A stretch of 64,000 nucleotides of DNA from Eledone cirrhosa (taxonomy: Eukaryota), in NCBI GenBank assembly GCA_964016885.1, contig OZ024747.1:71424001-71488000 (forward strand). Reading direction: 5' to 3'. Below the pieces are notes generated by a model. It saw only the letters and a list, made by a program, of their open reading frames with translations. It did no database searches and was not told where the DNA came from. Shown piece by piece: positions 1,974-31,237 of this stretch. Every line of letters starts with the position of its first letter. The stretch's first letter is position 1. A program made the position numbers and the translations under genes.

Positions 1974-2060
1974 TAGATAGATAGGTAGGTAGATAGATAG
2001 ATAGATAGATAGATAGATAGATAGATAGATAGATAGATAGATAGATAGATAGATAGATAT
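1974..2060. repeat. (GATA)n microsatellite, 3' flank of Tx1 copy 1
   Basis: direct reading. Confidence 0.95.
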
Positions 2061-2061
2061 A

Positions 2062-4305
2062 TTTCTTTTATTTGCCACTAGGGCATCAAAAGTGGGACAA
2101 GTACAAAGGGGGGAGTTTACACAAAAAGGCGTCCTCAATAAGGAGGAGGCAATAACAAAATATAAAAATAAAATAAGATATAACAAAAAATAAAATTTTT
2201 AACAAAATCCTCAATAGAGAGGAGGCGCCTTGGGGGGTCGCACACACCCCCGAAAAAAGTGTGCAACCCTTCTCCTCAGGAGCACAGAGAAGGGGTGCTC
2301 CCTTGGTCTTTCATCTTCCTCACCTATAGTCTGATGTAGAGTGAAGGCCCATTCACACGGGCCATTCTCGCCACTTTCACCCATCTTTCATAGAAACGGC
2401 TGGGGTGCAGCACCTCTCTCTCCATCCTGATCCTTCTTCCGAAATGATATCGGAAGAAACGGACCAGTTGTTGGCCAGAGAGAAAGGTGCCCGACCTCAG
2501 TCCTTTCAGACGCGTCCACCATACAACCTCTTTCGCCATGGCTATTACGCACAGAAACACCGCCTCTGCTTCATCTTTGAAGGGGGGAGGCGGCTTGATC
2601 ATTACAATAGACTCGGTGGTCAACCGGATCGGTCCCACCCTTGACAGCAGTTGTTCGACATAGCCCCACAGATCGGCTACGCCCGAGCAGTGTACTAATG
2701 CGTGTGCAACGGTTTCCTCGTCGCACACGCATCTGGGACAGATCTTTTTGGCGGGGTCCCTACCCGGGCGCCCGTGTCTGTAGAGCCTTTCTCGAACGGG
2801 TAATGCCCCTCGGTAGCACTGCCAGGCCAGGGACTTCTGGAAGTTGTCCATAGGTCCCGGGCTGAATGTCCTACCGAAAAGGCTGGCCAGTTCGTCCTCC
2901 TCCATGTCTAGGGCTTCTCCGAGGGCGTCGTCGCACCTGCTGCGTACCAGCCCTCTATAGAATGTTGCGGTGGAGTCTCCACTGATAACCGGATCCGCCT
3001 GCCAGAGGGCGGTGAGCGCCTGGGCACACTCAGTGTGCCAGGCGCCCAGTTTTCTGGACCAAACCAGACCCCGAGCAGCTTTACTGGTCCTTCCGTCCAG
3101 CGTCCGACGACGCCATCGGAAGGCATCGGTTTACCTCTCCAACATCCGAGTTGCAAACCGATGGACTTGTCCCGGTTCAGCTTCGCTCCTGTGAACCTTT
3201 CGTATTCCTTCAATAAGGTGCCGACTTCCTCGATTTGCGAGGCGCTCGACACCATTACTGTCACGTCGTCGGCATAGGCCGACGCCGCTTTCCGCAGTCC
3301 CGGTTCCAGGAGGATGCCCTGCAATAGCTCCAACTTCCGCAGTAGTGGCTCGAGAGTCAGTACGTCAAGAGGGGAGGAGAGAGGGCATCCCTGTCGAATG
3401 GATCGCGTTATATGGAACGTTCACCATAACCCTTGAGCAGATGTTGATGTTGTGCATTGCAGCAATCCAGCCCCTGAACACGATTCCGAAGCCTGCCGCC
3501 TCGAGTACCGCATCCAGGTAACGATGGTCAACCCTATCGAAAGCCTTAGACTGATCCAAGTTGATCAGGGCCCCACCGAAGCCGGGTTTACACCCTACCT
3601 TCTCTATGATGTATCGCATGAGGTGGAGGTTGTCGTGTATTGACCTGGTCGGGATTGCGCATGTCTGCGCTTCTCCCACCAGTTCTCGAGGACAAGCGCC
3701 AGCCTCTTTGCCAACACCTTGGCCAAAATCTGTAACTCTGTGTTTAGCAGAGTTATGGGCCGGAAGTTGCCTATGTCATCCCCATTATTCTCGTCCTTCC
3801 TGATTAGTGTGACCACGCCCCCGGTTACAGAACTGGGAATTCTCCCGTTCTGTTGCCAGTTGCAGTAGACCTCTTCCAGGAGACCGGAGAATAAGTCCGG
3901 CATTGCTACGTAAAATTCGTAGGGTAGACCGTCGAGACCAGGAGATTTGCGTTTGCCGCATTGGCTCAGCGCGTCCCCTATCTCAGCGGCTGAAATCGGC
4001 TTTTCGCAGAACTTTGCCTCGCTGTCCGAGAGTTGCGGTAGGCTGTCGAGGTATGGACCGAAATCCATAGCCCCTCCCGGCGCGCCGCCCTGCCCAAACA
4101 GTTGAGCAAAGTGCCGCTGAAAGGCCGCACACATCTGCTTCGGCTCACGTATCACGCGTCCGTTTTGGTCCTTCAAAGACCGAATCGTGGACTTGTTGCC
4201 ACTTTTTGCCTCCGTCACTCGGGCCCAGCTAACAGCTTTGGCTCCCTCGTTTCCCAGAGCACGTATTTTGCTTCTGACAACGCAGCCCTCATGCTTTGCG
4301 TCGAA
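2062..4305 (-). mobile_element. Tx1/L1-clade non-LTR retrotransposon copy 1; 5'-truncated, internally deleted, chimeric
   Basis: ORF fragments 3604-4344, 3365-3679, 2908-3333 and 2324-2905 carry KSPGLDG, NFRPITLLN, LDQSKAFDRVDH, AYADD and CPRC-EETVAHALVHC; (GATA)n on both sides. Confidence 0.95.
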
Positions 4306-4829
4306 GATAGATAGATAGTTAGATAGATAGATAATTCCCCACATTTCTAACTCTTCGGTTCAGTATCAGAATGGAAGGATGAAGAGCGATGTCGTCTGCC
4401 ATAGAATTTGAACTCGGAACGTAAAAGGAAGTAACTAAACACTAAAACATATGTTTCTCTCCTGTGCCCAACTGATTTTGCCATCAATAATTTATCGATT
4501 TTTTTTCTTTTCTTTTCAGAATAACGAAAGAAAGTTGATCGAGTTGAGATAAAAGTGAGAAAAACCTCTTCACAAAAACACTGATCTTATGTTATCGAAG
4601 CAAAACAGAGAAACAAATAATAATCCAGGTTACAACTTTAATGTTTTATATCTTCTAATGTATACAGAACAACCGCTTCTTTTCAGACGTTGCTTGATGG
4701 TATTAAAGTATTAATCAACTTACATTTTCTTTCATTCAGCAAATTTTAGATTAATCACCTCGTAGTTTCTTCTTTTGTTTCTCTCTCTCTCCAAAGTTTA
4801 TTTTTTGTTCTTCTTTTGCTTTTGAGAAT

Positions 4830-29062: not shown

Positions 29063-29095
29063 GTGGGCGGCAGAGCCAAAGGAGAGTGTAGAGAC

Positions 29096-30973
29096 CTACC
29101 TTTCCGCTTCCCGGGGTTCGGGTTGCACGACTTCCATGGGGTCGGGGGTGTTGGGTGAAGGGGTGTCTTGTGGTGGTGTGGGGTCGTCAGTGTGTGGTGG
29201 GGTTGGGGTGTTTGGAGTTGTGTTGGGGAGGGGAAGGGGAGGGGGAAAGCTTTTTAGTAGGACGCGGTTTATGGGTTTGACAGAGGGTGGTCCTACGTCC
29301 TCCTTAAAATCCTTTTTTAGTTTTTGGTAGAGGTTCATTGGGATTTTTATTAGTTTTAAATGTGGGTGGTTTTCTGACGAAACAAAGTTTACACCTTCGG
29401 TTTGTACCGAAGGATTATTGTATATGAGTTCATTTAATTTATTATTGTTTCTGTTGATGTAAGTATAGTGTAATGTCTTTTTTTCCGATGGTGTGAGTGT
29501 TTCGAAGAGGGGAGGGGCAGGTTTGGTTTTGTTTGTTGCTGGAGGGGTGTTTTCTGTTTTGTTAGATTGTGTTGCGATTTGGGTGGGGGTTGTTTGTCCT
29601 TGTGTGTTTTGCACATGTTTTCTTTTTTTCCTTTTAATCTGTCTGAAGGACTCCGTTTCTTCCTCCGAATTCGTTGGGTTATCTTCAGTGTTGGAGGGAA
29701 GAGGTATGTTTGCTGGTAATGTTTCCGCGTTGGTTTTCTTTGTGGGGGAGATGGATGTCACTATGTTAGACTGTGTTGTGTGTTGTGTCTGCGGTGGTTG
29801 TGTTGTTTTATTGAGTGAGAGGTTGGGTGGGCCTGTATTTTGTTTTGGGGTAATGTGTTGTGACTGTTTGTGTTGTGGTGGTGTTGTGGTGTTACTGAGG
29901 GACGGGTTGGGTGGGACTGAGTTTTGTTGTTTGTTTATCTGTTGTGGTGGTGGTGGTGGAGCTGGTGTTGGTAGCAGAGTTTTCTTTTTGTTGAGTTGTG
30001 GACAAGCGGCCTTCAGGTGCCCTCTGCCTGCACAGATATGGCAGGATGGCCTTCTCCCCTCCACGCTAATGTTTATATACCCGTGGTCCTCTAATAGGAT
30101 TCTGTCGGGTATTTGGGCGATGCGTTCAGGCTTCATTTGTACTACCAGCTCTATACCTGTTCCACTGAACGCATTGCCTGTGGTTTTCCCAATGGAAATC
30201 ACGTTGTCATTCACTGGATCGATGAAGCCAGCTATGAGCCAGCAGTAGTCCACATCTGGCATCATTGCATCCAGCCATATGCGTTGAGTTTTTTTTCCCA
30301 TATAAGATGGATAAAAGGTGAAATTTTTCGAACGAATCGGTGACAAAGCACATTTTTTTGCCGCCGATTCGTTCTTCATGATAATTGCTAGGCTTCCATA
30401 CAGTCTGTCTTTTCTTATGAAAGTTGTTTCATTCAGTACTTCTGCGAGTACTGTTTTGATATCTGCTTGAGAAGGTTGTTCAGGTTTTTTTGTACTGTTG
30501 TTGATGGTCCGAAACTTGACCGTTCGGCTTTCAATGTCTTTCGTGAATTCTTGAGGCATTTTTACCAATAAAATACCATTCTCACCTTCACTTATGTATT
30601 GTTTTGCGTCCGTGATCCTTCGTACCACATCTGAAATGTTTTCCGCTATATAAGTCAAAGATTTCTTTGTTTTCTGTGCAAATGAAATCTTGTCGTCTGC
30701 TTTGTTTTCTGATGTTATGTTATTTTCAACTGTTATTTTTTTGTTTGTTGTGTCTTTGTTTGTGTTATTAGTATTGTCATGCAATTTTTCAAAATTTTTT
30801 TCTTCGTTGTTTTCGACATTTAATTTTTTCTCCGCAGATTCGTCCGTTTTTATTTTCATTTTTCCTTCCTTCTCTATGACGTTAGTTGGGAAGGAAGGGA
30901 GGACTAAAGCGTGCGAGCTTACAACTCTTACCGCTGTCCCCCCACCACTATTTTCGTTCGCTGCGTTTAACAT
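29096..30973 (-). CDS. ORF1p: gag-like nucleic-acid-binding protein (625 aa, intact)
   Basis: zinc knuckle CHICAGRGHLKAAC (CX2CX4HX4C), Pro/Thr/Gln-rich region, basic KRKKRK; lies upstream of ORF2. Confidence 0.92.
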   Translation of the reverse strand: MLNAANENSGGGTAVRVVSSHALVLPSFPTNVIEKEGKMKIKTDESAEKKLNVENNEEKNFEKLHDNTNNTNKDTTNKKITVENNITSENKADDKISFAQKTKKSLTYIAENISDVVRRITDAKQYISEGENGILLVKMPQEFTKDIESRTVKFRTINNSTKKPEQPSQADIKTVLAEVLNETTFIRKDRLYGSLAIIMKNESAAKKCALSPIRSKNFTFYPSYMGKKTQRIWLDAMMPDVDYCWLIAGFIDPVNDNVISIGKTTGNAFSGTGIELVVQMKPERIAQIPDRILLEDHGYINISVEGRRPSCHICAGRGHLKAACPQLNKKKTLLPTPAPPPPPQQINKQQNSVPPNPSLSNTTTPPQHKQSQHITPKQNTGPPNLSLNKTTQPPQTQHTTQSNIVTSISPTKKTNAETLPANIPLPSNTEDNPTNSEEETESFRQIKRKKRKHVQNTQGQTTPTQIATQSNKTENTPPATNKTKPAPPLFETLTPSEKKTLHYTYINRNNNKLNELIYNNPSVQTEGVNFVSSENHPHLKLIKIPMNLYQKLKKDFKEDVGPPSVKPINRVLLKSFPPPLPLPNTTPNTPTPPHTDDPTPPQDTPSPNTPDPMEVVQPEPREAER

Positions 30974-31237
30974 TTCTGTTAGACGATTGAAATTTTTTAC
31001 ACAAAATTTTTTTTTAAAACAGGTTTTTCACCTCTAGGAGGGGTAAAGATGAGCTGACCCACCGCCTGACAGTTCAGACGGAGGGTCAAGCTACACAATT
31101 GTATCAAAATTAAGTTTGAACTCACAAAATTTCCTCAATAAATTTGAACAAAACTTCTGTGCGAAGTGAATGACATCCACACTGTAGAACAGACGACAGC
31201 TAGATTGATAGATAGATAGATAGATAGATAGATAGAT

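Follow-up and report, generated by a model that had tools for sequence, protein, structure and literature searches.

The 64,000-nucleotide stretch of Eledone cirrhosa DNA analysed here (assembly GCA_964016885.1, contig OZ024747.1, positions 71,424,001 to 71,488,000 of the forward strand; hereafter the window, with coordinates counted from its first base) contains one intact 5.8-kb non-LTR retrotransposon (a type that lacks long terminal repeats), encoding an apurinic/apyrimidinic endonuclease (APE) and a reverse transcriptase (RT), together with five fragments from related subfamilies. The intact element, copy 5 of the initial annotation and a member of subfamily A, lies on the minus strand at 25408..31206, opens with the head AATCTA and ends in AATAAAGAA-ATC. 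Both of its open reading frames (ORFs) are open. ORF1 (29096..30973, minus strand) encodes 625 amino acids with a single CX2CX4HX4C knuckle at residue 311 and gave no match in a Pfam search, and ORF2 (25625..29062, minus strand) encodes 1145 amino acids comprising the APE endonuclease, the RT and a C-terminal zf-RVT domain (Pfam PF03372, PF00078 and PF13966, the last just under the cut-off). The two share one frame, with a single stop and 33 nt between them (29063-29098, minus strand), an arrangement similar to that of subfamily B at 19377-19410. The 3' untranslated region (UTR; 25408..25624, minus strand) carries AATAAA without poly(A), as well as predicted hairpins conserved across subfamilies, in which 9 of the 27 predicted pairs have changed on both sides among eight sequences and which may possibly constitute a cis signal.

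At its 5' junction the intact element adjoins a (TATC)7 target array (31207..31234, minus strand), and its 3' end shares a second (TATC)n array (25360..25407, minus strand) with the 5' end of copy 4, the two forming a head-to-tail stack. Copy 4 (25170..25360, minus strand) belongs to another subfamily and retains only 3' UTR sequence, after which comes imperfect TATC (25146-25169). Copy 3 (13670..14117, plus strand), a fragment truncated at its 5' end, is flanked by a 15-bp target-site duplication (13655-13669 and 14118-14132, including one non-repeat step) at TC|TATCTAT, and copy 2 (19109..22916, plus strand) is a 5'-truncated subfamily B element with an internal deletion, 99.4% identical to other B copies and placed at an off-consensus (TA)n site between (TA)6 and (TA)25. 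The remaining stretch, copy 1, consists of two elements fused at ~3055, so that its two ends derive from different insertions: the 5' part (3053..4305, minus strand; imperfect (TATC)7 at 4305-4333) is a truncated ORF2 fragment with ~95% identity to a third subfamily and only 84% to subfamily B, and the 3' part (2060..3058, minus strand) is a subfamily B 3' end (99.4-100%) with a TATC array after it (1965-2059). The fusion point at 3053-3058 likely arose by template switching or by a deletion that joined two stacked copies.

The initial annotation had described these five stretches as copies of one family; at least four subfamilies are represented, the fragments are 69-85% alike to the full-length element, and copy 1 is chimeric. 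The sense-strand TATC that it described at both ends of copies 1, 3, 4 and 5 is indeed present, but in copy 1 it belongs to different insertions, and in copy 3 imperfect TATC makes up ~29 bp of a 5' flank that otherwise consists largely of (TC)n/(TTTC)n. The apparent 5' truncation points that it gave (4305, 13670 and 25360) are matched by the mapped fragment coordinates. Copy 2 was correctly placed in (TA)n, but the ATCTA at its 3' junction is the terminal ATC of the element plus the target TA and not a kept repeat. The lack of poly(A), with ends a few bases past AATAAA, was borne out at a measured distance of 5-7 bases.

A search of the 3.0-Gb genome with the last 290 bp of the full-length copy yielded 962 candidates, and all 40 that were scored were 100% identical to it. 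Exact 28-mers from the 3' ends located 1404 sites for subfamily A and 1942 for subfamily B. The first 100 consecutive subfamily A sites on contig C1 (chromosome 1) were taken as a sample, comprising 32 5'-truncated and 68 full-length copies; 8 of the latter have both ORFs open, and the head AATCTA is present in 45 of the 63 full-length copies aligned from the first base of the reference. This is a LINE-type (long interspersed element) family of thousands of copies, young or recently active. Among individual loci, L121 and L122, 15 kb from each other, are duplicates of one insertion in a short tandem satellite, L154 and L157 have in common an unusual 3' flank without TATC, and the contigs of runs X1, X5 and X6 hold near-identical element pieces with no usable flanks.

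Junctions were then considered with regard to whether the repeat is a target or a tail. Genome-wide, subfamily A 3' ends are followed by three bases and TATC at 1252 of 1404 sites and by three bases and TATA at 120 (any other sequence, at most 32), the corresponding figures for subfamily B being 1655 of 1942, 239 and at most 48; TATA use is thus slightly higher in B (12.3% vs 8.5%, p 4e-4). Within the 100-copy sample the last three bases are ATC in 54 and ATA in 44, with the target next, and this alternative tracks internal single-nucleotide polymorphisms (83 copies; the best of 56 columns gave p 9e-11), so that the three bases are element-encoded and mark the element boundary. In subfamily B (L231-L260) they are more variable (ATA, ACA, ACT, ATC or ACC), and the target still begins TAT. 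On the 5' side, (TATC)>=3 occurs within 50 bp upstream of 49/68 full-length and 19/32 truncated copies, to be compared with 38 of 79,200 random oriented positions having (TATC)3 in the same interval (0.05%; 400 kb of background taken at even spacing), which for the truncated copies corresponds to a binomial p of 3e-55. Three more of the 32 truncated copies have a resolvable duplication starting with TAT. The initial annotation had named mostly unique 5' flanks in truncated copies, or random orientation within arrays, as observations that would contradict a target; neither was encountered in the sample, where (GATA)>=2 was absent from both ends of all 100 copies and opposite orientation was seen in 0/100.

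Non-periodic duplications could be delimited in 41 of the 100 copies, and 36 of them were kept after dropping two longer than 30 bp and three offset from the element end. These 36 are 13-22 bp long (median 19), and all start directly after the last three bases and conform to TAT-T-T. Since they begin right at the element-encoded end, no tail has been added and the repeat was already there, in agreement with the earlier proposal that it is the target and not merely a tail. No fixed sequence marks the second break, 13-22 bp downstream, between 0 and 10 extra bases are found at the 5' junctions, and the two bases preceding the site are T in 33/36 and C in 31/36. Copies also stack: 48 of 100 abut a relative, and of 32 neighbours on the downstream side 31 share the orientation.

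Rebuilt sites read TC|TATCTAT in 21 of 36 cases, and at 16 of the 36 the perfect repeat spanning the site is shorter than 12 bp; sites in non-array or unique DNA include L092, L121, L124, L166, L172 and L174. In the 400-kb background, TA arrays account for 4.2% and TATC arrays for 0.038% of the sequence, TA being ~100 times commoner, and 3' flanks are enriched per available site ~10,000-fold for TATCTATCT and ~2-fold for TATATATAT. In our reading of these sites, the specificity would lie in a ~9-bp motif, TC|TATCTAT, more than in the array, with (TA)n as a minor site; that most copies lie in GATA arrays would follow from these being built of successive motifs. The GATA-repeat site-specific APE-type element put forward in the initial annotation is thereby supported, but its specificity is better described as a short motif, with (TA)n as a minor site.

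Related 3' ends adjoining (ATT)n were detected in a first search for sister lineages, with an ORF2 match at 27 of the 30 loci. With a pattern unselected for flank, sister ends are followed by three bases and TTAT in 1257 of 1469 cases, and among 30 sampled ends (ATT)>=3 is found in 21 and (TATC)2 in none. At least five long sister copies have (ATT)n at their 5' end as well. The RTs of the sister lineages are 75-79% and 69-72% identical to that of the TATC group. In a quick tree built from 39 RT rows, all four TATC rows group on a single branch (Shimodaira-Hasegawa-like approximate likelihood ratio test, SH-aLRT, 100) that is sister to three ATT rows (98), and two further ATT rows fall outside this grouping. 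Nesting of the TATC group among ATT lineages suggests that an (ATT)n-targeting ancestor switched to TATC. The TATC and ATT endonucleases differ consistently at ORF2 residues 21-22, 61-66, 115 and 194, residue 194 lying within the segment aligned to the beta-B6/B5 loop of L1, a loop tied to site choice in the part of the endonuclease literature considered here (PMC1950540). The differing residues are candidate specificity determinants only. A single-sequence AlphaFold model of the endonuclease reached a predicted local distance difference test (pLDDT) score of 34 and was not used.

A dispersed ~200-bp repeat resembling a short interspersed element (SINE) also occurs in the window, at 481-720, 31924-32118, 40725-40857, 42204-42354 and 53996-54145, with further copies at 59359-59508, 61223-61350, 62689-62837 and 63630-63837. 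At one end it is similar to the 3' terminus of the (ATT)n sister LINEs and leads into ATT repeats, and it often provides the array in which these sister LINEs sit.

In target-primed reverse transcription (TPRT), cDNA synthesis is primed from a nick made in the bottom strand where the duplication begins on the left, and insertions keep one orientation if the site is asymmetric. Taken together, the junctions very probably reflect a recently active L1/Tx1-type non-LTR group that inserts in one orientation at 5'-TC|TAT(C>A)TAT-3' with ~19-bp duplications, likely through bottom-strand nicking by the ORF2 APE and priming at the nick. The APE domain would read the motif and nick the bottom strand near 5'-ATAGATA/GA-3', a position that may lie up to three bases further to the right because TAT is invariant. 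The transcript would then pass AATAAA into the flanking repeat of its parent and pair with the nicked strand, in which case poly(A) would never be copied, and each insertion, by duplicating its own site, would renew targets and build stacks. The TATC preference itself would stem from the switch made by the (ATT)n-targeting ancestor. Fixed orientation is expected for any TPRT element at an asymmetric site and is therefore no separate novelty.

Several points weigh against this interpretation. At the apparent 5' end, repeat and duplication are both missing from nine of the 32 truncated copies, some of which may reflect later deletions or junctions beyond the retrieved sequence, and 59 of the 100 copies give no informative duplication, mostly because pure repeat lies on both sides. 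The way in which the 36 resolvable sites were chosen favours array edges and non-array sites, and the enrichment figures are rough, the background holding only 8 TATC arrays. Moreover, less than 12 bp of repeat is found at 10/26 sites vs 36/55 background motifs (p 0.03); sites are thus shifted to longer arrays than the motif predicts, so that either something besides the motif contributes or the arrays lengthen after insertion. The RT tree derives from a quick search without bootstrap and contains one switch only, which leaves the endonuclease differences confounded with ancestry.

The alternative that survives best, though it is unlikely, posits a loose endonuclease, with the target chosen mostly by pairing of read-through RNA, carrying the TATC flank of the parent, to the nicked strand, and hence inherited through the RNA. 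Conservation is tighter downstream (+1 to +7), where such RNA would pair, than upstream; poly(A) is absent; and with AATAAA 5-7 bases from the end, normal cleavage would fall within the flank. On the contrary, TC at -2/-1 is preferred even next to ATA ends, which are unable to pair there, the endonuclease loops differ consistently between TATC and ATT lineages, and the Tx1L endonuclease is itself sequence-specific according to the portion of the published work drawn on (PMC1950540).

The view that the element itself generates the repeat as a 3' tail, like CR1, L2 or RTE, and that 5' repeats arise from stacking on older tails, is highly improbable and has been largely refuted. It would account for the lack of poly(A), for nearly all 3' ends running into TATC and for the nine truncated copies that lack a 5' repeat, and 27 of 100 copies have the 3' end of another element within 260 bp upstream. 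However, the 36 duplications contain non-repeat bases and start with zero added units, their 5' copy already begins TAT-T-T, in unique DNA too, and TATA sites give TATA at the 3' junction. Near-random insertion followed by selective loss of copies outside microsatellites, or by later growth of repeats alongside them, hardly deserves consideration even in a genome very rich in simple repeats, being refuted by the exact phase and strand at >2900 ends, and further opposed by copies >99% identical to one another, by TA arrays being far more available than TATC, and by sister lineages occupying a different repeat in the same genome.

Returning to site recognition by the ORF2 endonuclease, a more specific scenario is that the family has been caught in the act of an ATT to TATC switch through a few changes in endonuclease loops, reinforced by priming from tail-less read-through RNA, with protein and inherited flank together setting a self-renewing target. 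This remains a tentative and rather doubtful proposal.

Regarding classification, the family shows features of APE-type non-LTR elements of the L1 group (APE, RT and C-terminal zinc-binding domain, two ORFs, 5' truncation and target-site duplications), and the best Protein Data Bank match of ORF2 is human L1 ORF2p (8SXT, residues 7-866, E 6e-51). The 3' poly(A) tail of the L1 clade in the strict sense is lacking, 98 of 100 ends being ATC or ATA followed by the target. RT identity reaches 67% with the closest named protein, from Argonauta hians, 37-40% with turtle and fish proteins, 31% with a fungal 'Transposon TX1' and 27% with a plant protein; the vertebrate proteins bear no clade name, and the fork that joins them is tentative. 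No match named Tx1L, Kibi, Koshi, Keno, Dewa or Mutsu was returned by the protein searches and a cluster look-up, and an ESM Atlas look-up gave only unnamed RT/APE clusters. A CCHC knuckle in ORF1 is a feature of the Tx1 clade, and the CX2CX4HX4C knuckle agrees with it. A target preference has been defined for Tx1 elements, in the section of that work used here, by >20% of flanks (PMC4494074), and (TATC)>=3 is present in 68 of 100 5' flanks. Membership of the Tx1 clade is likely, if putative.

Kibi, in (TC)n, and Koshi, in (TTC)n, are teleost Tx1-clade families (PMC4494074, PMC3812793) which, as far as the consulted parts of these reports describe them, resemble the present family as APE-type non-LTR elements with sense-strand insertion in a pyrimidine-rich microsatellite, and are set apart from it by target description: TC|TATCTAT/(TATC)n here, with TATCT starting 84 and TCTCT only 2 of 100 3' flanks. 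The tetranucleotide repeats (TTCC)n/(TTTC)n are likewise targets of Tx1 families in crocodilians, preferential rather than absolute in the same partial account (PMC4494074), but the unit is another one here and is accompanied by a ~9-bp motif, 19-bp duplications and (ATT)n sisters. Xenopus Tx1L is similarly APE-type, with a sequence-specific endonuclease in which the beta-B6/B5 loop is implicated, but it uses a single site in the Tx1D transposon in the excerpted description (PMC1950540), whereas the Eledone site is read from junction sequences. Human LINE-1 ORF2p has in common the APE-RT layout, TPRT with duplications and 5' truncation, and a short degenerate nick motif; LINE-1 differs in its poly(A) tail and TTTT/AA site, the Eledone family being tail-less with a much narrower site. 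For Octopus vulgaris, 13 L1-Tx1 families with recent activity appear in Table 1 of a report whose main text, compared by description only and seen in part, does not contain the word 'target' and gives no insertion preference (PMC13282606).

Other features of the window include a 2.6-kb (TAGG)n array at 15748-18316 (643 copies, 92% matches), TAGG arrays of at least 3 units being absent from the 400-kb background. A 278-amino-acid open frame at 54266-55102 (plus strand) resembles a C-terminal zinc knuckle plus restriction-like endonuclease and presumably belongs to an R4/Dong-type element; a 178-amino-acid frame at 61596-62132 (minus strand) has motifs of the restriction-like-endonuclease type, and we take it to be part of another early-branching non-LTR element. 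Directly after (GAA)19, a tandem repeat at 57874-58233 comprises about six copies of a ~58-bp unit, 89-95% alike.

The insertion strategy described here is known and shared with microsatellite-targeting Tx1 families, as these are presented in the passages relied on (PMC4494074, PMC3812793, PMC4640811); what appears new is the target and the putative natural switch. That the family targets TATC is real and well supported. In line with the initial annotation, which had not recognised this specificity as described, no TATC- or GATA-targeting APE element was found in the literature searched, of which parts were seen, Repbase and the supplements of PMC4494074 lying outside that scope and possibly recording one. 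How APE-type retrotransposons read microsatellites is not well understood, as stated in the available part of one such study (PMC3812793). With intact, recent elements at a sharp site and closely related sisters in a different repeat, a direct comparison by loop swaps and nicking assays becomes feasible, and the TATC/ATT sister pair is relevant to the engineering of site-specific retrotransposons. For the host, many GATA microsatellite loci are interrupted or flanked by the same element, which would affect marker design.

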